Of a stretch of 64,000 bases of DNA, positions 315-63,962 are shown piece by piece. The DNA comes from a virus (Duplodnaviria; Caudoviricetes), in the IMG/VR virus record IMGVR_UViG_3300027759_000005, positions 1,843 to 65,842 of that record; one strand, given 5' to 3'. The notes under the pieces were generated by a model. That model had not been told where the DNA came from. It was given only the letters and a program-made list of their open reading frames with translations, and did no database searches. The position numbers and the translations under genes were made by a program. Position 1 is the stretch's first letter, and the number at the start of each line of letters is the position of its first letter.

Positions 315-343
315 GACGCTTGCTATACACGCTTTGCGTGTGG

Positions 344-6224: not shown

Positions 6225-6661
6225 ATATATTTTATTTGGATAGAGATCCTGCTATAGCAGCTAAACAACACTACAATAAACATGTAATAAAAATGGTATT
6301 AGAAGCAGCTCAATTATTAAGTACCGCTCATCACATTGAAGGTAATCCCGAAGATGTTCCATACAAAAAGACGCATGTCAACCATCCTTCAGCAGTTTGG
6401 GTTAGATCATCAATACCTAATTATTTATGGTGTTATAATTATATGCTTGAACTTGGTAAAGAATATACACGGCGTTACGGCAGAGATCATTTGACAATAT
6501 CTAAGTGTAAATTAGTTTTAGCCAAAGTACCAAATAATATAACCAATACGGAATTTACAGATCCACCTCAATGTATGCCTGATGAATACAAAGATAAAGA
6601 CGCTGTTAAAGGTTATTGGAATTATTACATTAAAGGAAAATCACACTTAAAAGATAAATAA
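6221..6661 (+). CDS. pyrimidine-dimer DNA glycosylase-like (DenV/endonuclease V family)
   Basis: MNIFYLD...KHVIKMVLEAAQLLS...HPS..W...EY..RY motif set. Confidence 0.75.
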   Translation: MNIFYLDRDPAIAAKQHYNKHVIKMVLEAAQLLSTAHHIEGNPEDVPYKKTHVNHPSAVWVRSSIPNYLWCYNYMLELGKEYTRRYGRDHLTISKCKLVLAKVPNNITNTEFTDPPQCMPDEYKDKDAVKGYWNYYIKGKSHLKDK

Positions 6662-7443
6662 TGAAAAAATATAATTTAGAAAACTACGTCAAATATAAAG
6701 AAGACGTTAAAAAAGTTATATCTAGAACAGAAGATAAAAAACTTAGTGAACTAACACGAGATGAATTAATAGTTAGATTTTTGCCTTTAGTTGAGAATAT
6801 ATCTAGAAAATTTTCAACAGCAGATCAAGCATCTGGTATTATGGATATAACTGATATAATTCAAGAAGGTAGTATAGGTTTAATATTTGCTATTGATAAA
6901 ATAGAGTGGGACAAAATAAATGAATCTAACGATCAAGAACAAACATTGAAATCGTTTCTATCAAAAAGAATAAAAGGTTCAATTAGACGCGCGATAGATA
7001 TAAACAGAGGGTCTATACGTATTCCAGAGCATAAATTAAATGAAATAAGGAAAGATAGTGATACTGATCATAGATTATTAGCTTTATTCTTTAGTAGTAT
7101 GATCGATAGTTTAGATGAACAGTTTAACTCTGAGTATTCAGAAAACGAAGATCATAGTGAATCACACTACACTCAACTAGAAGATAAATCTGAAGAATAC
7201 AATATAGATATTTTAAATGCTTTTATATTAAGTTTATTTAGAAAACATTTAACTCATACTGAATCTGAAGTGTTAAGATTAAGTTATGGTTTAGACTGTG
7301 ATAAACATTCTGCTAATGCTATTGCTGAGGTTTTAGGTTTTAAAGGACCTAGTGCTTATGTAAGAGTTTCAGAATTAAAAAAGTTCGCGATAACTAAATT
7401 AATGTCTAAAGTAAATTATAAGCAACTACTTGAATATGTGTAA
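6661..7443 (+). CDS. phage-encoded sigma70-family RNA polymerase sigma factor
   Basis: Region 2 DIIQEGSIGLIFAIDK, RIKGSIRRAI, IRIPEH; region 4 VLRLSYGL...IAEVLG. Confidence 0.8.
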   Translation: MKKYNLENYVKYKEDVKKVISRTEDKKLSELTRDELIVRFLPLVENISRKFSTADQASGIMDITDIIQEGSIGLIFAIDKIEWDKINESNDQEQTLKSFLSKRIKGSIRRAIDINRGSIRIPEHKLNEIRKDSDTDHRLLALFFSSMIDSLDEQFNSEYSENEDHSESHYTQLEDKSEEYNIDILNAFILSLFRKHLTHTESEVLRLSYGLDCDKHSANAIAEVLGFKGPSAYVRVSELKKFAITKLMSKVNYKQLLEYV

Positions 7444-16579: not shown

Positions 16580-19500
16580 TTATGGCATTTTAAGTTCATT
16601 AGTTTTTAATTCACTTGTTTTAAGTTCTGGTATTTTTAAACTTCCAGAAGAACTCATTTCTACATTTTTGTTTTTACCTAATCCTAAATTCCATTCGTTA
16701 AAACCCATAAAGAAAGCTAATCTCTCCCATGCTTCAAAGTCTGAATTTAAAGCATTACTTAAATTTTGCGTTTTAACATACAATCTATCTACAGGTAAAT
16801 TAGTAGATGCTGATGTTAAAGAAGTTAGAGCTTCCAATGCATACACATTATCTGGACTAAAACCTTTATATAATATCTCATCTTTATTATATTCTACAGC
16901 TTTATAAGATTTAGCTAAAGCTCTAGCTTTGATACCTATAGATGGTGATAAATTAGCGGCTTCTAATAATACATCTCCCCATCCTTTTGGATCACCACTT
17001 TTTTCGTACCATTTAACTATAATATTCTTAACAGTAGCAAGAATAGCTCCTTGTAAACCAGAACCTCTAAGAAGTGTATCCATAGTTCCACTTAGAGCTC
17101 TAACTTTGGCAGAATCAAATCTAGCTTTTTTCTGTTCATCTTCATCATCCCAAAGTAAAGAGAATAAAGCATTTTGCATAAAGTTAAACATTATGTTTTG
17201 AACTGCTCCGTAATATAATATTTTAGCTATATTGTTTGGTACACTGCCTCTTCCTTTTATTAAATCAATTGCTGATCTTTTTATCAATCTAGAATACTGT
17301 AAAGGTGTATTTTGAAAAGCTAATATAAGTCTTCCTTTAACACTTGCTTGATTCATTGATATTTTAGAAACATCCGCAGACTGTTGAGAAGATTCAGAAA
17401 CTTGATAAAAATCTCGCATCGTAGCTTTTTTAGCTTCATCTTCTGTCATTCCAGATTTAAGGTACGTGTTTATTCTATTTCTATAAAAACCAGCGCCACC
17501 TAAAGCAATTGCAAAACTATCTGCTAATCTAGTTGGAGCATAACCTTGTTTTAATATCCAATAATTAACAGCTTTGAATTTATCTAGAATACTTTTATTT
17601 CTAGGATCATTCATTAATTGTGCTAATTCAGCTTCAGCAACATCATTCATTAAACCAGATCTTCTATCTCTAAGATAATCTGAATTCCATATAGTAAAAA
17701 AGTCTTTAGTGTACTGAGGTACATTTAATAACGCTGCTCCTGCTTTTAATATATTATTATCAGAAGTGTTTATAAAGTTAATAGCACCTAAAGTTTGAAG
17801 TAAAGCAGAACGCATATTAGCAAACATTGTTACTGCTGTTGCTCCGTTTAACCAATTTAATAAATTATCATTTGCTCCATCAACTCTATTACTACCAGTC
17901 TTCATTCTATCAAGAGTGTTTCTTAAAGCCGTAGCATATTTTCTACCATATACAGCTTCAATTTTACTCATGTTATCTTTAGAGAAAGCTTTTTCAACAT
18001 TTTTTGTCCAATGTTCTAAATATTTAGCTCTATTTGATTTTGATATAATATCGTTAATATCTCCAACTACAGAACCAAATCCCCAATTATGACCAGGTTT
18101 AGTCCAACCATTAGCTTGTTTAGAAAGTAAAGAAACGTCATCAGCAAATTTCCTTAATTTAGGATCTGTTCTTACTTTTTCAACTAAGTTAAATATATCT
18201 TTTTTATCTAAACCGGGTATTTCATAACCAGCTTTTTTCCATAAATAAACTCTAACTGCTTGATCATATAAATAACCACCGTAACCACAATCTTGTTTAA
18301 GTATTTTACTTACACCTTTATGTTTCTTGTTTATTAAATCTGTCCAATCCTTGTACATTGTTTGCCTTGCTTTCATCAGATTAAGCATTGCATCACTATA
18401 AGGTTTTAACAAAGTGTTTCTAAGAAACTCAAGTTGTTCTTCACCTCTAATGCCAGACGCTGAAGCAAGTGTGTATAGCAATCCTTCGAAGTCTTCGTCT
18501 TCAGGTGGTAGATAAATTTTATGTCTACCAACGTTTTTACCTAAATTTTTAGCAGTTTCAGGAGAGAACTTTTCTTCTGATTTTACACCTTTATTTTCTT
18601 CTATAATATCATTGATTGTTTTCTCAATATTATTATTCATTTCAACTATTTCTTGATATTTTTTAGATTTATAATCAAGAGCGTCTAATACCTGTTTTGT
18701 TAAAGGTCTATTAGCATTTTTCTTAACTGTAAACTCAAAGTCGTTATAACCTTCCGCTACCTTTTGAATTATAAAATAAGCAGTAGATTTGTCTGACATT
18801 TTAGATCTACTTGGTACTTTAAAAGTTACTTTAGTTCCATCGGCTATTTTAGCGTTTTTAATAGCATTATCAATGTCTCTTGCTACAACCCATTGTTCTG
18901 TGAATGGAAGACCTTCTAAGAAATTAGATAATTTACCATTTTCTTCTTCTGCTAAACTAAATTTTATAGGTTCCGCAGGTTTAGATTTTAATTTCTTTGT
19001 AGCAAACTCGCCAGTATTGTGATCTTCATACGTGTAATAAACTACTTCTGCTAATTTGAATACTTCGCTTTCTTTTATCGTATCTTCTACATCTTCATCA
19101 TATTCACCTCTATCTATTATATCTAATTTTTTTACTTTCTTTAAATAAGAAAACCAAAGATTGTCAAATCCAGTCATTTCCATATTTAAGTTTTCTAACT
19201 CTTTTAAACCTGTGACTTCTATGTTTCCTCCTGAAATAGATTCTATATTTTCAGTTGATAAAGTTTTTAACTTTGAAGGTAATTTAATTGCATTAGTTAC
19301 TACACCTGCAATAGAAACTGTATTTGCATTTTGCAGATTTGATAATACAATTTCTTCTGTTTCTTGGTCGTTAAAATATAATTCTAAATTTCTACCAGAA
19401 ATATCAACAGGTTCATAAAAAATATTAGTACCAGCTTCTGTGTCAACTGGATCACTATCATAGAAATCTAAAGAAATATTATAATCTATTTTTGATGGTA

Positions 19501-22500
19501 GATTTAAGAAATCTCCTTGATTTGTTTTAAACTCAATATTAAGGTTTTTAGCGTTTTCTAGTTTTTTGGCTTCAAAACTAAGTAATCCCCTAATCGTTAA
19601 ATTATATGCTTTTGTTAATTCGTTTAATTTAATATCTTCATAAGGATCACTAACAGTTTCTAAAAATTCCAGATCAGAATTTGGATTAAAACCTAATTGA
19701 ATATTCACGTCAGAAGTAAATTCAGTCAATTGATTTAAAACATCTAAATCAAAATCACTTAAAACTTCACTTATTCCATCTTCATTAATATTAAATCCGT
19801 TTTTATAAATTTCTAGTGGATCAGCGCCTGAAGCTCGTTGTTTTTCCATTAACACTCTTCTTAATTGACGACTAGCATATTTTGATTTTATATATATATC
19901 ATTTTCAAAATGTATATTTATATCTTTTGATAAAATAAACCCTTTTAATATGTCTTCATCGTTAATTTTTCTTATATCTTCTTCTGTATTTCTATATAAT
20001 ATTTTAGCTGTCTCTAATTGATTTAAAACTAAATCTTTATTACTAGAAGGTAGTTCATTTGCAGCAAATTCTATTTTATTAAAATCTTGTTTCCACAAAT
20101 TTTGATTATCTCTAGTACCAGCCATTTCAACAATGTTCTTATCATTATATCTTACTGCTAATACCGGTATTTTACTATTTTTATTTGCTATTATATAGAA
20201 ATCACCATCAGATAATTGACTAGCCGCCATTTGCATAGAAGCACCAGTACACCAACTAGAACCTTTATATCCAGATTTTACACTGTAAGACGCTAATTTA
20301 TTAAGTGTTTTAATTTCTTTTTCGTCTGTACCTCTATTGAACTTATATAAACTATTATCTTCATCTACGTCTTGAATAAAATTACTATCAAAACTAATTG
20401 GCTTTTCATTCATTTTTTTAGCCAAATACAAAGCTCCAATTCCTACACTTTTATTATTTGAATAGTTTTTCCATATTTCTTTTAAAGTGTCAAGATCAGT
20501 ATAATCTTGTATTGGTTGTATAGTTGTTTTGTATTCTGATTTTTTTATAGACTTCCTAGTTATGTTTTCGTTTCCATCTGGATAATATCTATTACTAAGA
20601 ACATCTTTTAAAAATAAATATTTAAAAAACAAACTATAATCATGTGAATCAAATTCATTTGTAGTATCAGCTAATTGTTGTAAAGCTTTCTCTTGTTGAA
20701 GTTGTATTTTCTCTAATTCCTTTTGTCTAAACTTTTCATCGTTTTTCATTTTAGTCCAATAAGGAAGATGAACTTCTTCTTCTGGAATGTTTATAGATCT
20801 ATTTAACATAGTATCTATATAACCTTCTTTATACTCTTTAATTACCCATTCATTTTCACTGTAATCATCATATAAAGAATCAAACAAGTCAGAATATCTT
20901 TTTTCAATCTCTTTGTTTAATTCACTAGCAGATTTTAAAGTATGAAGTTTTTTAGTATTTACATCATCATCTTGAATATCAGATTGTTGTAAAGCTTTTA
21001 TTATCCAACCTTCATAGTCTTCAAGTTCGTCAGTGTTTATTCTAGATAAAAAATCTTTAAACTTACTTTGTGGTTCAGGTGCTGGTTCTTCTATTTCAGC
21101 AAGACTAAACTTTATAAAGTCAGAAGGATTACTAAATAACTCTTCGTATTTTGAAGAATACATAGGATTATCTCCTATCATGTTCGAAGGATTAGCAGTA
21201 ATATAATCTGGTTTTGGTCTAACAGGAATTTCTTCAACTAAACTAAACTTAACTATATCACTCTTACCTTTAGCCATATCATTAAGAACTTTTGCTCTAA
21301 TAATATCATCTTTAAGTTCGTTATATAAGTTTACATTTCTTTCAGCTACTCTTTCTAAAAAGTCTGGTTGTCTTAATAATCTTCTAGCTTCTTGTAAAAC
21401 CATTACATCACCAAAAAGTTCCATCAAAGCGGTTCTTCTATCAAAATAAGTTGTTGGTCTTAACTTACCACCATCTTTCTCACTAACTTCAGGTTCTTCT
21501 AATTGTTTTAGTTCTTCAGCAGCATTTTCACCACCGTATATTTTTATAATACGAGTAGCATCGTCAACACCATAAAAAGACTGTAAGAATTTTACTCTTG
21601 ATATATCTTTTATTTTTCTAAAATCACCTTTTTCATCTTGTTCTTTAAGTCTAGGAGGTAATTTTTTAGAAGCATAACTAGATTCTCCAGTAATAGGATC
21701 TACAGGGTGATTAATCACATCATATAATAATTTCCATTTATCATACATGAAAGATTCTATTTCTGGTCCATTTTTAAAAGTCATTCTTCTAGCCATTGTT
21801 TTTGACAATGTAGATAATCTCTCTTTAAAATTTCTATATTCTAATGTTTCTATATTTGGAGATCGTAATATCTCACGTCCAACCTCATCAGAAATGATTT
21901 TAGCAGGCGTATCTGGCATAGAAAGAGCTTCAAAGGTGTTTACCATCATTCCGGTTGAAAGATCATAAGATTTGAAAGATTTCAAAGCTTTTAATTCTTC
22001 CTTTTCTTCAAACGTTAAGTCTTTTTTTGCTTGTAATTGTAAACCTCTATCTAGATCTCTTATTTGTCTATTAAGATCTGCTATTTTAACTGGATCGGTT
22101 TCTGTTTTAAGTTTTCTATTAGCGGCTACTGTTGGATCAGATGCTTCTGTAACGAAGAATCCTCCAAAAGGAACTGTCTCTATATCTATTTGTTTACCGT
22201 CTTCATCCACAAATTTAAAAGTTGGATCACTAAGTAATACTGCTAATCCTCTTTGTTCGTCCGCAAAGTCTTGTTCAGCATCAAATACACTGTCTGAATC
22301 ATCTAAAAATGTACTTTCTTCCCCTGATTCACCAGCAAAATCGTCTTGAATTCTTTTTTCTTTAAAACCTTCACCTTGAATGTCTTCTGCAAATATTTGA
22401 GATGTTACGTTACCTGTTTTAAGGGCATCTTTCATCTTATTTGCTAATTGAGAATTTATATAAGCGTTTAAATCTGTATTTTCTTTTACAATGCCTTTTT

Positions 22501-25500
22501 TACCTTGATAACCTTTTTCGTCTTGAGTTTCGACTTTATCTTTAAACTCTTTACTATTAGGATCTAATCCTTTTGCTTCAAGTTCTTTTTTGTATTCTTC
22601 TCTCTTTTGAAAGAATTCTTTATTAAAATTACGAATAAGAGGGATCATCGCTAATTGCGTTTCGCTAACAAAGTCCATTTCGCTAAAGTCTGGTAAATTT
22701 GCATAACCAAGTCCTTTTGCTTTACCTTTTATTATATAGTCGTATTCATTTAATATATCGTACATTACTCTATTAATAACTGGATTTTCATCTTTGGAAT
22801 TACTTCCAGTACTCCAAGCTTCTTTATTGTATGTTTTATTTACGTCTCTTTTAATATCTTCTGAAGATTTTCTTTCGCTCAAAGAAAATTTAGCCACTGT
22901 AGTAAAGTTAGATCCTTCTTTTGGTTTACTAACTTCTTTAGTCTCTTTATTTTCTTTTTGTATGTTTATTTTAGCGCCTTCATTACTCATTTTAGTTAGA
23001 GCTTTACCCCAGTTACCTGTTTCAACGCTATGATTATAATCTTTTAAGAAATTATAAACATCTCTACCAGAATTAAATTTTATATCTTTTATACCTAAAT
23101 ATTGTAAAACTCTTCTTATTGTGTCTCCAAGTTTAGTAAAAGTACTTTCTTCGTATTTTATATGTCCTCTTCTTAAAGCATCAGAATAAGTTGTTAAAGC
23201 TTCTTCCCACATAACACCATCTATTTTATTGAGCATGTCATTGTGTGCTGCTTTTAACGCTGCTATTTTAGATGGATCACCATCCGCTTGTCTTAATTTT
23301 ATTTCGTATGAAGCTATTTCTTTTGCTTTTAATTCTACACTTTTATCAATGTATTGCTTTAATCTTTGCATAAACATTCCAGAAACTGGACTATCTTTCG
23401 ATCCTTTCTTTTGTAAAGCATCATGCATTTTCATTAACTCATTTGTTAATGCAGTACCAATTAGTTTTTGCGCTTCAGGATTATCTTTTAAAGTATTTTG
23501 CAATACTCCATGTAGAAACTCATGTTGTATAACACCAGCGTCCCTAGTTTTTGATTCATTAACTACAATTACTTGAGATTTATCGGAGATAGAATCTGCA
23601 TCTTTAGAATATTTTTTTAATGTTTTAGAATTTAACGCAAAACCAGGATTAACTAAATAATCATTAGCATCTTTCTCTGGCATATTCAATTCATTCATCA
23701 AGTAATCTTTAGTTTCCTCTGTACTTGAGAAAGTTTTCATTTCGATTCCTTTAGCCACTCCTTTTTTTATAGCATCAGCAATAGCTTTATTTTTAACCTT
23801 TAATTCACTTTCATATTGTATATCAACGATCTTCTGTCTTATTTCGTCTATTTTATCATCTATTTCACCATGAAAAGCTTTATCTACAGATTTCTTTTCA
23901 TTTTCTAGCTTAGTAATTTTATCTAACTCTCTCATAACAGGCATTGCTGCTTCTGGAGTTATAGTTTTACGTAGTTTATTTATGTTATCAGCATATATAT
24001 CTACATCTTTCTTTAAGTTGTCTGCTTGTTCTACTGTAAAAACTTTTTGATTAACTAAACCATCTATAATTTTAGTGAACTCTTTTTTATTTTTAGCAAG
24101 TGTACTTAACGATGTTAAATTATCTATGTTTTCATCTGGAGAATGAAAGTCAGGTAGTTTCATTTTAGATATAAGACCTGAAGATAAAAAAGATAAAATA
24201 GAGGTATTTACGAAATCATCGCCAGACATAACTTCGTTCATTATCTTTTTACCAGCTTCAAGATTTGTTATTTTATTTGCGCCAATCTCACCTACTTGCT
24301 GTATGTTTTCTTGAATAACTTCTTTACCACCTTCCTCAGCGAAACCTATCATGTTTTTAGGAGCGTTTTTAACAATATCATCTAAATATTGCATGAAACC
24401 TTTTTCACCTTGTTTAGTATATTGGTCTATAGCTTTTTTTATTATATTCTTAGGTCCAAATAAGTTCTCAGCAACTTGAGTTTGAGGGTTTATTATACCA
24501 GTAACACTATATAATACAGCTAATCTTTGAGCAGCTGAAGAAGCTAATTTAAAAGCTTCTCCATCTGTTATACCATTTTCTCTAGCTGCTTTTAAAGTTT
24601 CTTCATATCCTTGAGTATAACCTAAAGCACCTTGTGCTATCATAGAATAACCTTCTGCTCTTTGCAGTGGTATCATCTTTAAAGCATTTGATGTATCATT
24701 TAAAAAAGAACTAAATTTTGTGGCTCTTTGAGCTCCACTTAATGCTAATCTTGTTTCTGTAGCTATTGCTCCAAATTGACCAACGCCACGTGTTAAAGCG
24801 GCTTGAATGATCATATCACCCATTACATTAGCAGTTTGAGTCGCCGCACCTTGACCGCTAAAAGCCCAATCTGACGGTGCATATTTAGAGTCACTTAATA
24901 TTTTTTCATAAGTGCTTTTACCTAATAAATCCGTAACTCTTATCTTAGCATCTTTATCATATACTTGACCTCTAGAATCAACTATATAATCGGTACCATT
25001 GTATTTTACTAATTTACCTGAAGCATAGGCAAAACCTCTATTGTCTGGTCTAGATAATTGAGTTTGTTCTGCGTTTAATCTTATGCCTTCAGCAACATCA
25101 GTCATTCCTAATTTTTCATAAACTACTGGACTTACTTGATCCAATCTGTCTATCATACCATACCAACCAGCTCTACCAATTTTACCAGGTGTGTCCCAAG
25201 ACCAAAAATCAGAAGAACCTTTCTTAGATTCTTCATATAATTTAGCATTCTCGGCATCTCTATCTTTTAATTTTTGAGCAACACTTGGAAAATTATTTTC
25301 AATGTATTTTGCTGTTTTATTTTGATCAAATAAAGATCTATTTATTATTTGTTTTTCTTTTATATTACCAGATACTAATTCTATCTCTTGATTTAAGTCT
25401 TGTTTGGTATAATCACGTCTTTGCATGTTATCCATGTACAAGTTTAACATACGTTTTTTAGCTAGTTCATCTGCTAACTTATAATCGTAACCGGTCATAA

Positions 25501-26227
25501 AGTTAGATCCTTGTCCACTAAATAAACCTCTTTCTTTCTTGTCTAAATAATCTTGCTTGTATCCGTTTTTATTTAAGAAACCATCGAAGTCTTCGGTGTT
25601 TACACCTAAACCTTCTAATTCTGTTCTACTATAATTTTCATCAATAAAATTATCTTCTTGATTTTGTTTTTTAGAAGAATAATATAAATAAGGATGATCA
25701 AGATCAGAATCTGTTTCTTGTATCTTACTCTTAAGTCTTGCTATTTCATTTAAACTATCTACATGTTCTGTAGAGTTAGGTTTTAAATCATATATTTCTT
25801 CTGGTTTTGATACTTTGACTTTCTTTTGTTCTGGTAAAGAACCTAATCTTTGTTTGTAATCTCCTTTACCTAAAAGTGCTTTTAATTCTTGATAGTCTTT
25901 GTTAAAATTTGTTTGAGCACCATATAAATCATTAATATCTGCGTTGGATCTACGATAAGTAGAAGGAGGAGGAGCATCTCCTCTCTTCTGCATTATTTCT
26001 AAATCGTCTTCGTTTGCTAGTCTATATTTTTGTGAACCCGAAGAACCACTTGCCTGCTTGGATTCCGTATTTTGTGCTTTCTTTTTCGGCATCACGCCCG
26101 CACTCTTCGCAACGCCTTTTAACTTTTTTGCATTTGGATTCTCCATTAAAAAGTTAATTCTTTCAAAATCTGAATAATTAGACAAATCTACTTGTGATCC
26201 ATCCGGTAATGAATATACTTCTTCCAT
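16580..26227 (-). CDS. giant internal virion/ejection polyvalent protein (3215 aa)
   Basis: Last gene of the structural operon; HExxH (QHEFLH) zincin motif; four KFSL junction motifs; SWC-containing and LRR-like insert. Confidence 0.7.
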   Translation of the reverse strand: MEEVYSLPDGSQVDLSNYSDFERINFLMENPNAKKLKGVAKSAGVMPKKKAQNTESKQASGSSGSQKYRLANEDDLEIMQKRGDAPPPSTYRRSNADINDLYGAQTNFNKDYQELKALLGKGDYKQRLGSLPEQKKVKVSKPEEIYDLKPNSTEHVDSLNEIARLKSKIQETDSDLDHPYLYYSSKKQNQEDNFIDENYSRTELEGLGVNTEDFDGFLNKNGYKQDYLDKKERGLFSGQGSNFMTGYDYKLADELAKKRMLNLYMDNMQRRDYTKQDLNQEIELVSGNIKEKQIINRSLFDQNKTAKYIENNFPSVAQKLKDRDAENAKLYEESKKGSSDFWSWDTPGKIGRAGWYGMIDRLDQVSPVVYEKLGMTDVAEGIRLNAEQTQLSRPDNRGFAYASGKLVKYNGTDYIVDSRGQVYDKDAKIRVTDLLGKSTYEKILSDSKYAPSDWAFSGQGAATQTANVMGDMIIQAALTRGVGQFGAIATETRLALSGAQRATKFSSFLNDTSNALKMIPLQRAEGYSMIAQGALGYTQGYEETLKAARENGITDGEAFKLASSAAQRLAVLYSVTGIINPQTQVAENLFGPKNIIKKAIDQYTKQGEKGFMQYLDDIVKNAPKNMIGFAEEGGKEVIQENIQQVGEIGANKITNLEAGKKIMNEVMSGDDFVNTSILSFLSSGLISKMKLPDFHSPDENIDNLTSLSTLAKNKKEFTKIIDGLVNQKVFTVEQADNLKKDVDIYADNINKLRKTITPEAAMPVMRELDKITKLENEKKSVDKAFHGEIDDKIDEIRQKIVDIQYESELKVKNKAIADAIKKGVAKGIEMKTFSSTEETKDYLMNELNMPEKDANDYLVNPGFALNSKTLKKYSKDADSISDKSQVIVVNESKTRDAGVIQHEFLHGVLQNTLKDNPEAQKLIGTALTNELMKMHDALQKKGSKDSPVSGMFMQRLKQYIDKSVELKAKEIASYEIKLRQADGDPSKIAALKAAHNDMLNKIDGVMWEEALTTYSDALRRGHIKYEESTFTKLGDTIRRVLQYLGIKDIKFNSGRDVYNFLKDYNHSVETGNWGKALTKMSNEGAKINIQKENKETKEVSKPKEGSNFTTVAKFSLSERKSSEDIKRDVNKTYNKEAWSTGSNSKDENPVINRVMYDILNEYDYIIKGKAKGLGYANLPDFSEMDFVSETQLAMIPLIRNFNKEFFQKREEYKKELEAKGLDPNSKEFKDKVETQDEKGYQGKKGIVKENTDLNAYINSQLANKMKDALKTGNVTSQIFAEDIQGEGFKEKRIQDDFAGESGEESTFLDDSDSVFDAEQDFADEQRGLAVLLSDPTFKFVDEDGKQIDIETVPFGGFFVTEASDPTVAANRKLKTETDPVKIADLNRQIRDLDRGLQLQAKKDLTFEEKEELKALKSFKSYDLSTGMMVNTFEALSMPDTPAKIISDEVGREILRSPNIETLEYRNFKERLSTLSKTMARRMTFKNGPEIESFMYDKWKLLYDVINHPVDPITGESSYASKKLPPRLKEQDEKGDFRKIKDISRVKFLQSFYGVDDATRIIKIYGGENAAEELKQLEEPEVSEKDGGKLRPTTYFDRRTALMELFGDVMVLQEARRLLRQPDFLERVAERNVNLYNELKDDIIRAKVLNDMAKGKSDIVKFSLVEEIPVRPKPDYITANPSNMIGDNPMYSSKYEELFSNPSDFIKFSLAEIEEPAPEPQSKFKDFLSRINTDELEDYEGWIIKALQQSDIQDDDVNTKKLHTLKSASELNKEIEKRYSDLFDSLYDDYSENEWVIKEYKEGYIDTMLNRSINIPEEEVHLPYWTKMKNDEKFRQKELEKIQLQQEKALQQLADTTNEFDSHDYSLFFKYLFLKDVLSNRYYPDGNENITRKSIKKSEYKTTIQPIQDYTDLDTLKEIWKNYSNNKSVGIGALYLAKKMNEKPISFDSNFIQDVDEDNSLYKFNRGTDEKEIKTLNKLASYSVKSGYKGSSWCTGASMQMAASQLSDGDFYIIANKNSKIPVLAVRYNDKNIVEMAGTRDNQNLWKQDFNKIEFAANELPSSNKDLVLNQLETAKILYRNTEEDIRKINDEDILKGFILSKDINIHFENDIYIKSKYASRQLRRVLMEKQRASGADPLEIYKNGFNINEDGISEVLSDFDLDVLNQLTEFTSDVNIQLGFNPNSDLEFLETVSDPYEDIKLNELTKAYNLTIRGLLSFEAKKLENAKNLNIEFKTNQGDFLNLPSKIDYNISLDFYDSDPVDTEAGTNIFYEPVDISGRNLELYFNDQETEEIVLSNLQNANTVSIAGVVTNAIKLPSKLKTLSTENIESISGGNIEVTGLKELENLNMEMTGFDNLWFSYLKKVKKLDIIDRGEYDEDVEDTIKESEVFKLAEVVYYTYEDHNTGEFATKKLKSKPAEPIKFSLAEEENGKLSNFLEGLPFTEQWVVARDIDNAIKNAKIADGTKVTFKVPSRSKMSDKSTAYFIIQKVAEGYNDFEFTVKKNANRPLTKQVLDALDYKSKKYQEIVEMNNNIEKTINDIIEENKGVKSEEKFSPETAKNLGKNVGRHKIYLPPEDEDFEGLLYTLASASGIRGEEQLEFLRNTLLKPYSDAMLNLMKARQTMYKDWTDLINKKHKGVSKILKQDCGYGGYLYDQAVRVYLWKKAGYEIPGLDKKDIFNLVEKVRTDPKLRKFADDVSLLSKQANGWTKPGHNWGFGSVVGDINDIISKSNRAKYLEHWTKNVEKAFSKDNMSKIEAVYGRKYATALRNTLDRMKTGSNRVDGANDNLLNWLNGATAVTMFANMRSALLQTLGAINFINTSDNNILKAGAALLNVPQYTKDFFTIWNSDYLRDRRSGLMNDVAEAELAQLMNDPRNKSILDKFKAVNYWILKQGYAPTRLADSFAIALGGAGFYRNRINTYLKSGMTEDEAKKATMRDFYQVSESSQQSADVSKISMNQASVKGRLILAFQNTPLQYSRLIKRSAIDLIKGRGSVPNNIAKILYYGAVQNIMFNFMQNALFSLLWDDEDEQKKARFDSAKVRALSGTMDTLLRGSGLQGAILATVKNIIVKWYEKSGDPKGWGDVLLEAANLSPSIGIKARALAKSYKAVEYNKDEILYKGFSPDNVYALEALTSLTSASTNLPVDRLYVKTQNLSNALNSDFEAWERLAFFMGFNEWNLGLGKNKNVEMSSSGSLKIPELKTSELKTNELKMP

Positions 26228-29394: not shown

Positions 29395-31005
29395 TTAGTA
29401 TGATGATTCAATATATTCAGCAGAAACTGCGTATAATTCTGATTTATCATTGTTATTATGATCACATTGAAATGTTGCGTTTGCAAAAAATCCTTTTACA
29501 CCAGAGATATATGGTTGACCCCATATTATTTCGTTTTCACCAGGTAAAGAAGTGTTTAATATATTTGCAAAATATTTATTTTCTTTCTTTTTAAATCTAT
29601 TTTCAAACAATTGATCTTCTAATCCAGATAAAGTTGAAGCAGAAATATATTGTCTAACAGGAACTGATATGTCTGTTTCTGTAGAGAAATCAGGTAAAAA
29701 CCAATTCTGTGTTCCTTCGTAATTAATAGTTAAGAAAGATTTAGATTCTGAAACATTAGGGTTAAAAACAATAGAAACTTTTGATGGATATTGAACTCCA
29801 TAAAAATTAGATTTGTTTACTGAAGTTGAATAGTGTTTCCATATAGAACCGTTTTTAAATGTATATAAACAGTTTCTTAAACTAACACCGTCATTTGGTA
29901 TAAAACTATGAAAACTTGTCCATCCAGAACTATCTTCATCAAAACTTACTGTTGCACTATTATCTTCATCTATGACTAATATATTAGAAACTGTTTTAGT
30001 AGGTTGTATACAAACTACATATTGTTTGTTATGTATATCCCATATTCCATAAACATAACCATTCTGTAAATTAATATCTGAAAGTTTATCTCTAAAATAA
30101 TCAAACATTCCATAATCAGATATTTCAGTTATACCATCCTGAGATAATCTTAAAACAACGTTTTGATAAGTGTCTACAAAATATTTTCTATAACCATATA
30201 CTGCAAAACTTTCAGGATGTTTTCCTATACCATAATTACCAGCGTAGGTTTGAACTTGTCCTATTACCTCTAAACCAGAAGTTGTCATAGGCATACCATC
30301 AGCAGAGTAAACAGCACTTTTATCTATTAAAGCTCTACTTACTTTTAATTCTTGAAATACAGTTAAATTCGTATCTTCAGCATATAGTCTTTGTATAGAA
30401 CCATTTGCCGGATCTAATGTTCTTGTTATATCTTCTGCTACAGAGAATTGATTAGTATTGTTAATGCCAGTTCTAGAATTAAATACACCAGAATATATTA
30501 ATCTATTTATTAAATTTTCTCTTTGATTATTTTCTTCTACAACATAAGCTTTTACACCTAAATCAACACTTGTATTATTATAACCTCCTCTTATTCTTGA
30601 TTCTTCTATGTACCAATCTTGTGACGAACCTCCAGTAGCTGTTATGTATTGACTTGGTAAAAAATCATAATCAATTATTTCACCTAAATATATAGTTGTT
30701 CCTGATGGTACACTAACAGTTAGATTATTATATAGTGTAAAATACGTATAAGTGGCATCTGATGTAACATATGTAACTATGTTTTCATAATTAACTCCAG
30801 TCAAAGTCCAACTTATACGTTGACCTGGACCATACAAAGTAGGATCTGGCGCAGATGCTAAAGTAACTTTTAAATAGTTATCACCAATTGAACCAGTTCC
30901 TGAAGTTGTTATTCCAGCGGCAACAGTAGGACCAACTTTCGTTATACTGTCTATTTTTTTTAACCAAAATGAATTATAATATTTTATTTCTATAGTTGCT
31001 GCCAT
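29395..31005 (-). CDS. tail stabilisation/muzzle protein, C-terminal part
   Basis: LIYSG.FNS.TG.N..NQF, LDP..GSIQ.L, DTNL, YGIG.HPESFA, RLS.DGIT.IS (crAss-like muzzle motifs). Confidence 0.7.
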   Translation of the reverse strand: MAATIEIKYYNSFWLKKIDSITKVGPTVAAGITTSGTGSIGDNYLKVTLASAPDPTLYGPGQRISWTLTGVNYENIVTYVTSDATYTYFTLYNNLTVSVPSGTTIYLGEIIDYDFLPSQYITATGGSSQDWYIEESRIRGGYNNTSVDLGVKAYVVEENNQRENLINRLIYSGVFNSRTGINNTNQFSVAEDITRTLDPANGSIQRLYAEDTNLTVFQELKVSRALIDKSAVYSADGMPMTTSGLEVIGQVQTYAGNYGIGKHPESFAVYGYRKYFVDTYQNVVLRLSQDGITEISDYGMFDYFRDKLSDINLQNGYVYGIWDIHNKQYVVCIQPTKTVSNILVIDEDNSATVSFDEDSSGWTSFHSFIPNDGVSLRNCLYTFKNGSIWKHYSTSVNKSNFYGVQYPSKVSIVFNPNVSESKSFLTINYEGTQNWFLPDFSTETDISVPVRQYISASTLSGLEDQLFENRFKKKENKYFANILNTSLPGENEIIWGQPYISGVKGFFANATFQCDHNNNDKSELYAVSAEYIESSY

Positions 31006-53042: not shown

Positions 53043-53299
53043 AAAACAACAACTACATCACCTAATTTTATAACATGGTATGTTTGCTTGTCTTTTTCTA
53101 TTTTATGTCCAGCGTGTCTATCATAAAATATGAAATCACCTTCTTTTATACCAACAATCTCTTCTCCTACTTTAATAACTTTTGCTTCGACATATCTTAT
53201 GTCCTCTCTTTGATTTTCAGCTAATAGAAGTCCTCCTTTTGTTTCTTTTACTCCTTCTTTTATCTTTTCTATAATCAAGAATTTACCTATTGCTCTCAT
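53039..53299 (-). CDS. groES: co-chaperonin GroES
   Basis: ETKGGLLL mobile loop, VIKVGE, IKEGD.I.Y; adjacent to groEL. Confidence 0.85.
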   Translation of the reverse strand: MRAIGKFLIIEKIKEGVKETKGGLLLAENQREDIRYVEAKVIKVGEEIVGIKEGDFIFYDRHAGHKIEKDKQTYHVIKLGDVVVVL

Positions 53300-54843
53300 T
53301 ATGCTCTTAAATTATTAATTACACAATCAGTTGACAATATTGTTGTGGCTACAGAAGCAGCGTTTCTTAAAGCACTTTTTGTAACTAACAAAGGATCAAT
53401 AATACCCGCTTCAATCATATTCACGGTTTCACCTGTTATTACATTGAGACCATACCCAACTTTTGATATTGTTTCTATTGAAGCATGCTCAATACCCGCG
53501 TTATCTAATATAGTTTTAAATGGTGCTCTTATTGAATCTAAAAGTATCTCTTCTCCCGTAGAAAAAGAATCTATATTATGAGAAGCGTTTAATAAAGCAA
53601 TTCCTCCACCTGGAACAATTCCTTCTTTAATAGCTGCTTTTGTAGCACAAATAGCATCTTCTATTCTATCGGCTTTTTCTTTTAGTTCTATTTCTGAATT
53701 AGCACCAACTTTTACTAAAGCTATTTTTGCTGTTAATCTTGCTAATCTTTTTTCTAGTTTTATAACTGCATTAGCGTCTTTTGTTTTTGATAAAGAATTA
53801 TTAATATCATCTATAATAACTTTTACCTCATCTTTTGTTTCTCCTACATGTAGGATTGTTTCTTCATGATTTGTAATCGACTTAATACATGTTCCAAGCA
53901 TTTCTGGTTGAATTAAATCTAAATCATCACCTAGATCTTCATTTATTAATGTTGCTCCAGTTAACAAAGCCAAATCATCAAAAATCTCTTTTCTATTTAC
54001 TCCATAAACAGGAGCGTCAATAACATTTACTTTTATATTACCTTTAGATTTATTCATTGCTAAAGTAGCTAATGGAACTTGTTCCATATCAGCTATAATA
54101 AGTAAAGATTTATTGTGTTTTATAATATACTCTAATACTGATTGAATTTGTCTTATATTTTCTATAGGCGATTCAACTAGTAAGACTAAAGGATTATCTA
54201 GTTCTGCTGTTTTATTTTTTTGATTAGTAATAAAATGTGAGTTCTTTAAACCCATGCTACATTGAACTCCCTCTACTACTTGCAGACTACATTCTGCATC
54301 TTGAGTGGTTTCCATCATAACAATACCAGTATTACCAACTGATCTAAAAGCGTCACCAACTAGTTTTCCTAGTTCTGAATCGTTGTTTGTAGAAATTGCA
54401 GCTATTTGATCTAGCATTTTGTCATCTACTACAATAGAGTTTTCCTCTAAGTATTTTACAACTTTTTCAACAGCTTTGTTAATACCTTCTTTAATACTTC
54501 TAGCGTTAGGATTTTCTACTGCATAAGCATTTTTTAAAATAGCATGAGCTAATACCGTTGCTGTAGTGGTGCCATCACCAGCTTCTCTAACTGTTTTTCT
54601 TGCCGCTTCCTTTAATAATGTTGCTCCCATATTTTCTACAGGATCTAGTAAAATGATTGAATCAGCTACTGAAACACCGTCTTTTGTGATAACAGGTTTA
54701 CCAAAAGAATCTTCAAGTAATACACATTTACCACTTGCCCCTAGAGTAGAACTTACTGCTTTAGATAATTTTTCAATTCCAGCAAACACTTTGTCGCTTG
54801 CGTCTTTTCCGAAGTTTAAATTTTTAACTATTCCGTCTGACAT
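53299..54843 (-). CDS. groEL: chaperonin GroEL
   Basis: TKDGVSVA, AGDGTTTATVLA, EGIVPGGG, GIIDP. Confidence 0.95.
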   Translation of the reverse strand: MSDGIVKNLNFGKDASDKVFAGIEKLSKAVSSTLGASGKCVLLEDSFGKPVITKDGVSVADSIILLDPVENMGATLLKEAARKTVREAGDGTTTATVLAHAILKNAYAVENPNARSIKEGINKAVEKVVKYLEENSIVVDDKMLDQIAAISTNNDSELGKLVGDAFRSVGNTGIVMMETTQDAECSLQVVEGVQCSMGLKNSHFITNQKNKTAELDNPLVLLVESPIENIRQIQSVLEYIIKHNKSLLIIADMEQVPLATLAMNKSKGNIKVNVIDAPVYGVNRKEIFDDLALLTGATLINEDLGDDLDLIQPEMLGTCIKSITNHEETILHVGETKDEVKVIIDDINNSLSKTKDANAVIKLEKRLARLTAKIALVKVGANSEIELKEKADRIEDAICATKAAIKEGIVPGGGIALLNASHNIDSFSTGEEILLDSIRAPFKTILDNAGIEHASIETISKVGYGLNVITGETVNMIEAGIIDPLLVTKSALRNAASVATTILSTDCVINNLRA

Positions 54844-61468: not shown

Positions 61469-61785
61469 TATTAATTCTATTTAATGTCATACCTTTCTAA
61501 TCACATAAAAAAGCGGAAATTTACTCAAATGCATTGTCAAAAAATACTATAAAAAAAATTTTTTTATGGGTACCTTTTTAGGAGGACGTGGGAAATAAGA
61601 GTGTGAGATATATAGAAGCTGGGGGTTACTACCTAATTTCTAAGTTGTTTTTTCAAAAGGAAAACGCATTTTAAATTTGCGGGTTCCCCGACTTTTATTA
61701 CTTTCCGTAATCGTAATGAGTCGAATCAATTGATTGCGGAAATAGTATTTAGCTTTTGCCTTACAGCAGAGTATGTATAGCATTC

Positions 61786-61819
61786 CACGGAGTTACTACT
61801 TTTAATATCAGATAATATA
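61786..61819 (+). promoter_or_regulatory. early-type promoter, copy 1 (CACGGAGTTA-N13-CAGATAATATA)
   Basis: Repeated motif with fixed spacing, upstream of ORF 61864. Confidence 0.75.
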
Positions 61820-61863
61820 ACTGAAGGTTAACAGTAACCTTTATAACCTAATAATTATATACT

Positions 61864-62127
61864 ATGCAAAACAAAGCAGCGGTTGCAGCAGCAACACCAG
61901 TACAATTGACTACAAAAAGATTCGTAATCAGAAAGAGTTTGATCGGCACTAACACGATCATCACCTTCGTCAACAGCAAGCAACAGACTTGCGTGTACGA
62001 TCACGACAAGGTGTACAATCAACTTAAAGCTAAGTTCGATCTTATGCCATGCTTCGAGAAATACGGATCATATACTAATACTAATAATCTGCCAGCATTC
62101 GTGCGAGCATTGCCTGAGTTAGTATAA
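61864..62127 (+). CDS. unknown early protein, paralogue 1 of 3
   Basis: 72-aa core TTKRFVIRKSLIG...LPELV shared with ORFs 62595 and 63029. Confidence 0.85.
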   Translation: MQNKAAVAAATPVQLTTKRFVIRKSLIGTNTIITFVNSKQQTCVYDHDKVYNQLKAKFDLMPCFEKYGSYTNTNNLPAFVRALPELV

Positions 62128-62184
62128 TCAATCGACCTAAGCAAGTCGTTAAACTGCTTTATTATTAACTTAATCTATATCATC

Positions 62185-62358
62185 ATGAAATCATACAAAG
62201 TAATCATATTAAGATCATCTCAAATCGTTCAAGTATCTCTATTCTTAGCTACAATGGCTCTAATAGCAATACAAATAATAATGGTAATCGCATGTGTATT
62301 CAACATCGACCTTGGTATTCAACACAAGCCAGAGTTATCGTTCGGAATCTACGGTTAA
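62185..62358 (+). CDS. small membrane protein (57 aa), not in the ORF track
   Basis: MKSYKVIILRSSQIVQVSLFLATMALIAIQIIMVIACVF...; one TM segment. Confidence 0.6.
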   Translation: MKSYKVIILRSSQIVQVSLFLATMALIAIQIIMVIACVFNIDLGIQHKPELSFGIYG

Positions 62359-62373
62359 TCTAAATCTAATATC

Positions 62374-62475
62374 ATGAAATACATAATCACTCTATTCAAT
62401 CAGATCAAACCAATAATCATACTCGGTTTGTTAGTATACGCCAATATTGTATTGCTTGGTATGCTACATAAATAA
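62374..62475 (+). CDS. small membrane peptide (33 aa), not in the ORF track
   Basis: MKYIITLFNQIKPIIILGLLVYANIVLLGMLHK; same ATCATG start context as 62185; stop abuts terminator. Confidence 0.55.
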   Translation: MKYIITLFNQIKPIIILGLLVYANIVLLGMLHK

Positions 62476-62495
62476 GACCTTCGGGTCTTTTTTTT
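62474..62495 (+). terminator. cUUCGg intrinsic terminator, cassette 1
   Basis: AAGACC-TTCG-GGTCTT followed by T-run. Confidence 0.85.
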
Positions 62496-62516
62496 GACTC
62501 AATTATGTATAGCATT

Positions 62517-62550
62517 CACGGACTTACAAGTTTCTATGACAGATAATATA
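62517..62550 (+). promoter_or_regulatory. early-type promoter, copy 2
   Basis: CACGGACTTA-N13-CAGATAATATA. Confidence 0.75.
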
Positions 62551-62594
62551 TTCGAAGATTAATAATAATCTTTATAACCTTAATATTTATTACT

Positions 62595-62831
62595 ATGCAA
62601 AAAACAGAAATTACCACGAAAAGATTTGTTATTAGAAAAAGTCTAATTGGAACTAATACAGTAATTAGTTTTATCAACAACAAGAATGTATTAATTACTT
62701 ATGACCATGACAAAGTATACAATGCACTTAAGAGTAGGTTTGACTTGATGCCTTGTTTCGCTAAATATGGTAGTTATACTAATACTAATAATCTACCAGT
62801 ATTTGTTAGAAACTTACCAGAATTAGTATAA
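62595..62831 (+). CDS. unknown early protein, paralogue 2 of 3
   Basis: About 79% identical to paralogue 1 over the 72-aa core (counted by eye). Confidence 0.85.
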   Translation: MQKTEITTKRFVIRKSLIGTNTVISFINNKNVLITYDHDKVYNALKSRFDLMPCFAKYGSYTNTNNLPVFVRNLPELV

Positions 62832-62843
62832 TAATAGTTAATT

Positions 62844-62866
62844 AAAGGCCACTTCGGTGGTCTTTT
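62844..62866 (+). terminator. cUUCGg intrinsic terminator, cassette 2
   Basis: AAAGGCCAC-TTCG-GTGGTCTTTT. Confidence 0.8.
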
Positions 62867-62950
62867 CTTCTACTTAATTGTGGAATTGGCAGGCAGATCC
62901 GTGCGTAGTCGTTAAGTAAAGCATTTATAGCTATTTCGTGTATAGCACTT

Positions 62951-62984
62951 CACGGACTTACGACATTTTATAACAGATAAAATA
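62951..62984 (+). promoter_or_regulatory. early-type promoter, copy 3
   Basis: CACGGACTTA-N13-CAGATAAAATA. Confidence 0.75.
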
Positions 62985-63028
62985 TACGAAGTTTGATATT
63001 AAACTTCATAACCTTAAATTTTATAACT

Positions 63029-63301
63029 ATGCCAGTAAAAAAAGGCGCAGGAGCACCTGCAACAGTAACCAAAAACTCGCTAACTACTAAACGCTTCGTT
63101 ATTCGCAAGTCGCTTATTGGTACAAACACGGTAATTACTTTCGAGAACGCCAAAAAAGTACTTTGTACTTACGACCACGATTTAGTATACAACGCTTTCA
63201 AGGCGAGATTCGACCTTATGCCTTGCTTCGAAAAGTATGGTAGTTATACTAATAGTAATAATTTACCCGCTTTTGTACGAGCGTTACCAGAATTAGTATA
63301 A
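63029..63301 (+). CDS. unknown early protein, paralogue 3 of 3 (true start ATG 63029, MPVKK)
   Basis: About 83% identical to paralogue 1 over the core; ACTATG start context as in the other cassettes. Confidence 0.85.
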   Translation: MPVKKGAGAPATVTKNSLTTKRFVIRKSLIGTNTVITFENAKKVLCTYDHDLVYNAFKARFDLMPCFEKYGSYTNSNNLPAFVRALPELV

Positions 63302-63311
63302 ATTGACTAAG

Positions 63312-63337
63312 AAGTCGCCTTCGGGCGGCTTTTTTTT
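63312..63337 (+). terminator. cUUCGg intrinsic terminator, cassette 3
   Basis: AAGTCGCC-TTCG-GGCGGCTT followed by T-run. Confidence 0.85.
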
Positions 63338-63379
63338 ACAATTTTTACCCCTAAGCACGAACTTCAACACCAAAAAAAC

Positions 63380-63427
63380 TGTGACAATAGCCCCTTACTC
63401 TATTATACTTAATACCCTAATGTCACA
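63380..63427. promoter_or_regulatory. inverted-repeat site TGTGACAATAG-N26-CTAATGTCACA
   Basis: Second copy of the site at 5404-5446. Confidence 0.55.
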
Positions 63428-63492
63428 CTTTTGACTAATTGGTTGCTTGGTGTGCCATTATCGCTTTATTTTAGCGTTTCTGCTATACACTT

Positions 63493-63526
63493 CACGGACT
63501 TATTATAATTTTCTACAGATAATATA
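63493..63526 (+). promoter_or_regulatory. early-type promoter, copy 4 (no ORF downstream)
   Basis: CACGGACTTA-N13-CAGATAATATA. Confidence 0.7.
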
Positions 63527-63680
63527 TGCGAAATCAACCGATAAACCTGTTATATTGTGAGTTATTTCATTAGAGGTGCAGAGAGACGCAGTAATATACC
63601 CCTCAGTACTATTTATTCTAATAAACATTTTAACACCTTAGAAGTCATAGATTTCATTTATAGTACAACTATAATAACCA

Positions 63681-63714
63681 TACGGACTTAATAATAATAT
63701 AGTCAGATAATATA
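63681..63714 (+). promoter_or_regulatory. early-type promoter, copy 5
   Basis: TACGGACTTA-N13-CAGATAATATA upstream of ORF 63756. Confidence 0.7.
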
Positions 63715-63755: not shown

Positions 63756-63962
63756 ATGCAAGCAACAATCAAAAGTTTCAAACGAAGAGGTTCTACAATA
63801 TTCCTTAACGGAATAGAATACACTGGTTTTTTAATAGGTAGTTTACCAAACAAATTTGCCTATATCTACGATGCAGAAAATGACCGTGAAGGCGTTTCAT
63901 CATGGTTTAACCACAAAGGTTGGACGTTTATTAGAAAATCAGACTTAAAAAGTGGCTGGTAA
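63756..63962 (+). CDS. hypothetical early protein
   Basis: ACTATG start context after promoter copy 5. Confidence 0.7.
   Translation: MQATIKSFKRRGSTIFLNGIEYTGFLIGSLPNKFAYIYDAENDREGVSSWFNHKGWTFIRKSDLKSGW

Follow-up and report, generated by a model that had tools for sequence, protein, structure and literature searches.

What does a phage gain by opening a gene block with three copies of one small gene, each behind a promoter of its own? We addressed this question in a 64,000-nt stretch (the window) of the IMG/VR virus record IMGVR_UViG_3300027759_000005 (Duplodnaviria; Caudoviricetes), in which an initial annotation, made without database searches, had proposed that an array of three cassettes encodes a first-expressed host-takeover or anti-defence factor. 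Our analysis showed that the virus is a lytic podovirus-like phage of freshwater Bacteroidota, whose early rightward transcription block starts with this array, and that the three paralogues of the array share a core, here called domain X, which defines a new, non-enzymatic-looking family, undescribed yet abundant. A role of domain X in interfering with host defence is put forward tentatively.

Cassette grammar and copy number of the array

The results of motif, fold and open reading frame (ORF) analyses confirmed that the three cassettes share one grammar (Table 1). The order of the elements is terminator, 9-bp box, promoter-like motif, 5' stem-loop, AU-rich leader and gene; an ATAACCT...ACTATG leader precedes all three paralogue ORFs, and each of the three transcription units closes with a UUCG-loop stem followed by U's. 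Terminator 3 came from folding only and was not listed by the terminator scan. The third paralogue was counted from its ATG, the ORF lister having begun it at an upstream TTG (62993). The two extra small ORFs that the initial annotation had placed before the terminator of cassette 1 were also found, both with hydrophobic products. The limits first given to the array (61774-63337) hold for the three cassettes, the third of which has its box starting at 62939; beyond them the array continues with two more promoter units, making five, of which unit 4 has no ORF and unit 5 lies ahead of a conserved 68-aa gene.

The promoter-like motif (ACGGAnTTA-N13-CAGATAAnATA) was found six times in the window with 0.12 expected, and 0 of 100 shuffles reached six. 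It occurs five times, each time exactly, within 2 kb (61787-63714); the remaining copy, at 4949, has two mismatches, and a seventh is located in the 1.8 kb of the genome outside the window. The box was found 10 times in the window (both strands) with 0.79 expected, and in related loci the box or its reverse complement is located upstream of the promoter motif. Six box copies lie away from the cassettes (321, 3274, 5918, 9797, 18472 and 57702), and all six read TGCTATACA in the sense of local transcription; C comes next in five of them, and most are within coding regions.

The 5' hairpin was examined in 16 cassettes, from this phage and nine related loci, against 500 shuffles. Pairing was found in 90.9% of cells compared to 82.0 ± 1.8% in the shuffles (0 of 500 as high), and the covariation score was 0.318 compared to 0.199 (0 of 500 as high), falling to 0.07-0.10 when the partners were slid. 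One pair is AU in six sequences, UA in six, GC in one and CG in one; by the number of doubly changed pairs, the hairpin did not stand out (59 of 500 shuffles). The leader hairpin is a real, selected structure. Since G-U pairs are frequent in it, it fits RNA of the + strand, and since it starts 4-5 nt past the -10-like TAATAT block, it should lie at the 5' end of the transcript (putative start) or close to it, where it would serve as an mRNA stabiliser.

Copies were then counted by profile search in 43 related loci obtained from a scan of IMG/VR. Two or more copies were present in 25 of the 43 loci and three or more in 10, with a range of one to four and a single locus with four; these counts are lower bounds because many of the loci stop at contig ends. 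The search for homologues that the initial annotation had proposed thus showed that two to four copies recur at the same place in relatives from other samples, and its premise that compact lytic phages rarely keep triplicates fails in this lineage. The grammar of terminator, box, GATAAT-type block and leader was recognisable upstream of family genes down to about 45-50% protein identity.

An artefactual triplication, produced by an assembly that chains strain variants into tandem copies, had been named as the finding that would overturn this picture. The contig does come from a metagenome assembly, in which repeated promoters break short-read contigs at cassette borders, and other metagenome contigs were found to end exactly at these promoters, as short-read graphs predict. 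However, three or four copies in the same order were present in 10 of the 43 related loci, all assembled independently; run X3, from a different study, gave a contig of 1540 nt that covers 62517-63640 and bridges copies 2 and 3; and between the copies 27-32% of the core nucleotides differ and synonymous sites are saturated, which is far past strain variation. We therefore rejected the artefact, whose probability we regard as practically nil.

Three joints with sides just 29-48 nt long were seen on metagenome contigs, two of them pointing to strain variants. A joint 62183>62373 (run X3) lacks the 57-aa ORF and a joint 62159>62506 (run X2) lacks both small ORFs and terminator 1, while a joint 62819>62116 (run X1) leads from the copy-2 region back to copy 1; each was seen on a single contig.

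Paralogue divergence and the domain X family

Comparison of the three copies showed that their proteins are 74-80% identical, copies 2 and 3 being 74% and 75% identical to copy 1, respectively, and that the DNA of the 72-codon core is 68-73% identical. The 55 columns that are invariant among them include all the blocks listed in the initial annotation (TTKRFVIRKSLIGTNT, YDHD, FDLMPCF.KYGSYTN and LPELV). The proportion of synonymous differences (pS) in the core was 0.92, 0.93 and 0.71 between copies, nonsynonymous divergence (dN) was about 0.18, and the ratio of nonsynonymous to synonymous divergence (omega) was 0.08 for copies 2 and 3. With synonymous sites saturated and dN at about 0.18, the copies are old and under purifying selection. 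The pS of copy 1 with the others (0.92-0.93) is higher than the value of 0.75 to be expected at saturation.

Most core positions do not vary among the 120 closest homologues; entropy above 1.4 bits was restricted to positions 1, 2 and 5 in the N-terminal part, to a variable loop of pattern x-N-x-K-x-x-x (positions 27, 29 and 31-33), and to position 56. This agrees with the earlier placing of the variation in the N-tail and in core residues 21-29. The initial annotation had left open whether the copies are kept for dosage or for allele-specific targets; of the two, allele-specific targets agree better with old divergence under purifying selection and with variation focused in one loop than dosage alone does. 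The multi-copy state is selected.

The tree of 70 copies was built on a short alignment and many of its forks are unresolved. The first-position copies of six loci (this phage and five related ones) formed one clade (support 99/94) and the second-position copies of seven loci formed another (95/94), outside which copy 2 of the window falls; it groups weakly (86/89) with last-position copies. Copy 3 of the window groups with the last-position copies of its relatives, and in other lineages the copies form separate within-lineage groupings. The GC content at third codon positions (GC3) of copies 1, 2 and 3 was 0.51, 0.22 and 0.38 in the core, respectively, against an overall GC content of 0.31 for the genome, and in relatives GC3 differences showed no consistent dependence on copy position. 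These differences could stem from cassettes exchanged among phages that differ in GC content, or from selection that disfavours recombination of adjacent copies.

Domain X has a core of about 72 aa with the blocks KRFVIRKSLIG, Y-(D/N)HD, (P)C(F/W)-KY-SYT and P-F-R, all present in the window copies, and it is basic, with an isoelectric point of 9.05-9.83 in 10 of the 10 members computed (about 9.6). At least 7978 clusters at 90% identity match it (E <= 0.01; 8000 candidates scored), many of them on 59-78-kb contigs, and 303 clusters at 50% identity match its profile at E <= 0.001; the named members among the metagenome matches are all 'hypothetical'. In contrast with this abundance, tblastn found no family member in 50,697 deposited phage records. 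The three copies gave nothing above noise in Pfam, PHROG, NCBIfam and PADLOC, the ESM Atlas gave no usable match, and the profile search of the PDB gave only E >= 0.27. A full-text literature search found no paper with the motif strings of the family, and in the literature we found nothing on early genes of this phage group. The family was thus undescribed, as initially proposed.

The AlphaFold2 model of copy 2 (mean predicted local distance difference test score, pLDDT, 83.9; predicted template modelling score 0.63) runs from four strands through three short helices to one more strand and a final helix. The weak top rows of VIA-align include the PD-(D/E)xK nucleases D212, Hjc and NhoI and the N-terminal domain of Eco15I, with Z scores of 2.1-3.0, which are at noise level; nucleases of that fold have an alpha-beta-beta-beta-alpha-beta core and a catalytic D...(D/E)xK.

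Early position and candidate functions

The virus record is 65,842 bp long and carries an exact 127-bp repeat at its two ends, so that it represents a circularly closed assembly of about 65.7 kb, of which the window is bases 1843-65842. The array is located about 2 kb short of this arbitrary contig end, and the gene block that it opens runs on across the end into the start of the window, from 61.8 kb to 16.3 kb, with genes for a sigma factor, an Erf-type annealing protein, an exonuclease, a primase-helicase, a thymidylate synthase, MazG and a ribonucleotide reductase. Of the 13 related loci inspected, 11 have the family gene in first to third place among the rightward ORFs past the strand switch, and the two exceptions are the most distant loci. 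The large terminase (TerL) shares 65% identity with that of an uncultured podovirus from spring water (MW202828.1) and 44% with that of Flavobacterium phage vB_FspP_elemo; among 87 records matched by the terminase, 68 were Flavobacterium phages, 15 Cellulophaga, two Tenacibaculum and one Maribacter phages. DNA of the array region was present in freshwater metagenome runs from several studies.

Because the sigma factor gene is located downstream in the same block, the array promoters cannot depend on it, and the genes that come first in a block that also contains the phage's own sigma factor should be read by a polymerase already present at entry. The position at the head of the block and the downstream sigma factor point to early expression, and three promoters, stabiliser hairpins and insulating terminators point to a high output. 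A scan for sigma-70-like sites gave 15, one of which overlaps a promoter-like motif, and the motif holds no canonical -35/-10 pair.

A profile search of 401 Flavobacteriaceae genomes, a small sample, found domain X in three, a Robertkochia genome (G001) and two genomes with 136-aa proteins. Protein P0249 consists of a HEPN_Swt1 domain followed by X, and it has a full-length relative in Robertkochia sediminum (Flavobacteriaceae; L047 5398-6243); P0249 and this relative gave 31.7 and 33.5 bits for HEPN_Swt1 (cutoff 27.5). The R. sediminum gene lies on a 334-kb contig, divergent beside a WYL+WCX regulator, and regulators of the WYL/WCX type are frequent partners of defence systems. Pfam HEPN_Swt1 is absent from the three phage copies, the C-terminal module alone being common to phage and bacterial proteins. 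The C-terminal half of the 136-aa protein aligns to X (hhalign 94%, E 1.4e-7). One such protein belongs to a four-gene run (L052 20-2424) with a PtuB-like HNH gene (PADLOC PDC-M62B, E 7e-16), a 212-aa protein without assignment and a gene of the UDG superfamily, and the other adjoins a type I restriction HsdR C-terminal domain and a GIY-YIG nuclease. A D..D..QLK stretch was seen by eye just ahead of the X-like part of the 136-aa proteins, in a part that the phage proteins do not have. Both the HEPN_Swt1-X locus with its WYL+WCX regulator and the run of PtuB-like, X-like and UDG genes seem to be candidate defence loci, undescribed as systems.

In other proteins, X stands behind a Cys/His motif that looks HNH-like by eye (P0233), C-terminal to a GreA/GreB C-terminal-like stretch (P0202 and P0264, 18.2 and 19.2 bits, under the cutoff of 26.9), or twice in tandem in one chain (P0145, 157 aa). 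Neither P0271 nor P0233 had PDB relatives. The N-terminus of P0223 (372 aa) looked UDG-like by eye and was dropped as a candidate, having no match in Pfam, NCBIfam, PADLOC or the PDB and only E 0.12 by BLAST against the UDG-superfamily gene of L052; its AlphaFold2 model had a mean pLDDT of 37. The fusion or linkage of the domain to defence-type nucleases in a few Flavobacteriaceae lends indirect support to the anti-defence idea.

The function that we consider most likely, still as a tentative candidate that could well prove wrong, is that domain X is a stoichiometric binder that may interfere with host defence, either by mimicking or competing with the X module of bacterial effectors or by sequestering its ligand. 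A polymerase present at entry, whether the host RNA polymerase (RNAP) or an injected one, would fire all promoters of the array at once; the 5' stem-loops would stabilise the mRNAs and the strong terminators would insulate the units, and the cell would be flooded within minutes with three X variants, whose differences lie chiefly in a single surface loop and the disordered tail at the N-terminus. Because rare bacterial effectors of defence type, a Swt1-type HEPN RNase and an HNH-like protein, carry X as their C-terminal module, the free phage copies would most likely bind the same partner or ligand as the modules of these effectors. Acting as decoy, competitor or sponge, with a nucleic acid, a small signal or a host protein as partner, X could blunt the defence, and the set of paralogues would widen the range of targets. 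A more specific proposal is that X is the sensor or ligand-binding module of undescribed Bacteroidota defence effectors (HEPN-X, HNH-X and the X-like protein of the PtuB-like/UDG operon), captured by the phage and made from the first seconds of infection as free, high-dose sponges or decoys of three specificity variants, which would take up the activating ligand or block the docking site of the effectors; we regard this as unlikely. Were it true, the array would be a counter-defence device, modular and based on paralogues, that a very abundant lineage of freshwater phages has kept.

Several observations weigh against a role in counter-defence. The profile search gave no match to the family in the two nearest deposited genomes, which include the relative with 65% TerL identity and the cultured Flavobacterium phage, so that the family is accessory. 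Cellular fusions are few: about 10 of the 150 representatives listed have at least 140 aa, the scan for longer proteins gave three fused forms and that of genome contigs one locus, only one N-terminal domain among the fusions passed a Pfam cutoff, and the two 136-aa bacterial relatives match only at E of about 1e-7. Beside the HEPN-X gene we recognised no enzyme that would make a signal; of the six other neighbouring ORFs scanned, five matched nothing in Pfam and one encodes a GH25 muramidase. The search with the predicted structure, suggested in the initial annotation, gave no significant match (best E 0.66 by Foldseek against the PDB, best Z 3.0 by VIA-align, best E 0.58 in BFVD), and with a fold that has no match nothing structural points to a mechanism. 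The promoter consensus of Bacteroidota is TTTG at -33 and TAnnTTTG at -7; the promoter-like motif is unlike it, and this pattern was not enriched in the window (11 compared to 11.2 ± 3.7 in shuffles).

A factor for host takeover, which binds host RNAP, host sigma or DNA, stops host transcription and hands the polymerase to the phage sigma factor, as T4 AsiA, T4 Alc and T7 Gp2 do in function, is in our view unlikely. The phage sigma gene downstream would make an early silencing or re-aiming of host RNAP a logical need, X is basic, small and first by position, and the GreA/GreB C-terminal-like stretch of P0202 and P0264 recalls an RNAP-binding domain; these matches are, however, below threshold, and takeover leaves the HEPN RNase fusion and the nuclease operons unexplained. 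A conserved essential target such as RNAP would need neither a hypervariable loop nor three kept variants, and related phages do without the family. The two position-specific clades, the purifying selection on each copy and the tandem X domains of P0145 would suit three paralogues that are required subunits of one hetero-oligomer, which is compatible with either functional reading. Such an arrangement is nevertheless hard to reconcile with a copy number of one to four in relatives, with copy 2 of the window falling outside the second-position clade and with independent duplication in other lineages, and we consider it distinctly unlikely.

If X were instead a DNA-binding autoregulator at the 9-bp box (TGTATAGCA or its reverse complement), as an autorepressor or an early-to-middle switch, the presence of the box in every X cassette, its over-representation and its occurrence in either orientation at equal distance, as would be the case for a degenerate palindrome TGYWWWRCA, would be accounted for, and the basic charge would fit. 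However, no known DNA-binding fold was detected in X, six of the 10 boxes are far from promoter motifs, a regulator rarely needs three strongly expressed paralogues, and the bacterial fusions would again be left unexplained, so that this role appears highly improbable.

For interference with host defence, what speaks is that early, multi-copy, loop-variable small proteins carrying a module of host nuclease effectors have the profile expected of counter-defence. A large family of freshwater phages, first in the early block and in two to four diverged copies, had no name, no detectable fold relative and no member in the 50,697 deposited phage genomes, and the poorly charted conflict of Bacteroidota with their phages gains a pair that can be put to the test, X of the phage and, on the bacterial side, the HEPN-X and X-operon loci. 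The grammar of terminator, box, promoter and 5' hairpin could also aid promoter mapping and annotation in Bacteroidota phages.

Other features and comparison with known systems

Table 1. Positions of the array elements and of other features in the window
Feature	Position	Strand	Remarks
Phage sigma-70-family sigma factor	6661-7443	+	phrog_351, E 5.7e-18; TIGR02937, 47.5 bits (cutoff 42.9)
3215-aa ORF	16580-26227	-	Single DFDLD at residue 2158; no family match
ORF with crAss muzzle C-terminal domain	29395-31005	-	E 3.7e-10
GroEL-type chaperonin	53299-54843	-	
Non-coding region at the leftward (structural)/rightward switch, just upstream of cassette 1	61469..61773	.	~300 bp; no ORF of note after the 262-aa leftward ORF (end 61468)
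Box 1, TGTATAGCA	61774..61782	+	
Promoter-like motif 1, ACGGAGTTA-N13-CAGATAATATA	61787..61819	+	Exact match
5' leader hairpin 1, 9-bp stem	61822..61843	+	-8.0 kcal/mol, z -2.9; covariation
Paralogue 1, 87 aa	61864..62127	+	Ala-rich N-terminal tail
Accessory 57-aa hydrophobic ORF within cassette 1	62185..62358	+	Homologue in 1/43 related loci (L005)
Accessory 33-aa hydrophobic ORF within cassette 1	62374..62475	+	Homologue in 0/43 related loci
Terminator 1, AAGACC-UUCG-GGUCUU + 8 U	62474..62497	+	Stem 62474-62489; -7.5 kcal/mol, z -2.6
Box 2, TGTATAGCA	62506..62514	+	
Promoter-like motif 2	62518..62550	+	Exact match
5' leader hairpin 2	62554..62573	+	-5.0 kcal/mol, z -3.4; covariation
Paralogue 2, 78 aa	62595..62831	+	Short N-terminal tail; AlphaFold2 model, mean pLDDT 83.9
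Terminator 2, 9-bp stem, UUCG loop	62844..62865	+	-11.8 kcal/mol, z -6.4
Box 3, TGTATAGCA	62939..62947	+	
Promoter-like motif 3	62952..62984	+	Exact match
5' leader hairpin 3	62988..63007	+	-6.8 kcal/mol, z -5.6; covariation
Paralogue 3, 90 aa	63029..63301	+	Long Ala/Pro/Val-rich N-terminal tail; YDHDL variant
Terminator 3, UUCG-loop stem, then U run	63309..63334	+	-15.2 kcal/mol, z -5.3 (fold)
Unit 4: inverted box TGCTATACA and promoter-like motif (exact, 63494)	63481..63526	+	No ORF behind
Non-coding stretch behind promoter 4	63527..63650	+	Sequence block (about 63580-63650) kept in 3 related loci
Promoter-like motif 5	63682..63714	+	Exact match
68-aa gene of unit 5	63756..63962	+	tblastn matches in 14/43 related loci; downstream of the array in relatives

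The non-coding stretch of unit 4 had no supported secondary structure and no Rfam family; its conserved block may be a small RNA or a DNA element. A tRNA-like element was found at L050 1306-1432, in bases of the genome outside the window, where it reaches 31.8 bits against an Rfam gathering score of 29, contains two insertions (24 and 53 nt) and is not called by ARAGORN, and a second T-arm-like stretch (window 326-398) adjoins a copy of the box; Rfam and ARAGORN gave no match within the array region or the window.

The leftward block (16.6-61.5 kb) encodes the large terminase, the portal, virion proteins, the GroEL-type chaperonin, the ORF with the C-terminal domain of the crAss 'muzzle' and the 3215-aa ORF. 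The elemo relative carries an annotated cpn10. In crAss-like phages, a DFDxD catalytic motif in a giant virion protein marks virion RNA polymerases. Sequence searches in PHROG, Pfam and the PDB matched the 3215-aa ORF to no polymerase; with its DFDLD it is a candidate for a polymerase that the phage may inject and that may read the array promoters.

Among known systems, the PeSL elements of T4-type phages are cassettes with an early promoter and a terminator stem-loop, in which recombination shuffles small genes (PMC2839356); insertions, deletions, swaps and mini-circles arise from recombination between them. In both cases, small genes, many without a known function, are flanked in an early region that varies by units of promoter and stem-loop terminator, and some of the indels found here among strains or relatives fall at or between cassettes. 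The cassettes of our array differ in that they belong to a podovirus-like lineage of Bacteroidota and use another promoter sequence, whereas PeSLs belong to hyperplastic regions of T4-like myoviruses with early promoters of the sigma-70 type, in that they have an extra upstream box and a 5' leader hairpin, and in that they hold conserved paralogues of one family rather than unrelated ORFans. The PeSL-like shuffling expected in the initial annotation was weakly favoured by the strain variants without the small ORFs, by the absence of these ORFs from nearly all relatives and by the GC3 differences. As recombination is only hinted at, and as lineage and promoter differ, the PeSL is an analogy and the array is not a member of that class.

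Phage phi14:2, a crAss-like phage of Cellulophaga, has tripartite middle promoters of -35/-10-like type that are read by host RNAP, and its early transcripts, made by an injected RNAP, had no common motif (10.1101/2020.03.07.982082). The promoters of phi14:2 and of the array are both Bacteroidota phage promoters with an extended motif of three blocks, two of them resembling -35/-10 elements; those of phi14:2 differ in being of the middle class, and the likeness may be one of layout.

Promoters of the N4 type are DNA hairpins with a 5-7-bp stem and a 3-nt loop, located upstream of the start, where they are the main promoter determinant for an injected RNAP. The hairpins of the array have stems of 8-9 bp and loops of 4 nt, are located downstream of the conserved -10-like block and use G-U pairs, which point to RNA. 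The leader of ompA is a 5'-terminal stem-loop that stabilises mRNA; the array likewise has a stable hairpin a few nucleotides from the expected transcript start, with G-U pairs and with structure, not sequence, conserved. The difference is that the terminal position is deduced here from the -10-like TAATAT block.

T4 Dmd, which acts against the RNase toxins RnlA and LsoA, and the sponges Tad1, Tad2 and Acb2 are small, immediate, stoichiometric and dosage-sensitive anti-defence proteins. X was found similar to none of them in sequence or structure. Comparison of the domain X fold with anti-defence sponges gave no PDB match at E <= 0.001 by Foldseek and a best Z of 3.0 by VIA-align, absence from such lists excluding no family. 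By analogy with these proteins, which X resembles in being small and, by position, early, a similar role is a candidate for X; it differs from them in that X shares its domain with host effectors, whereas those proteins mostly do not.

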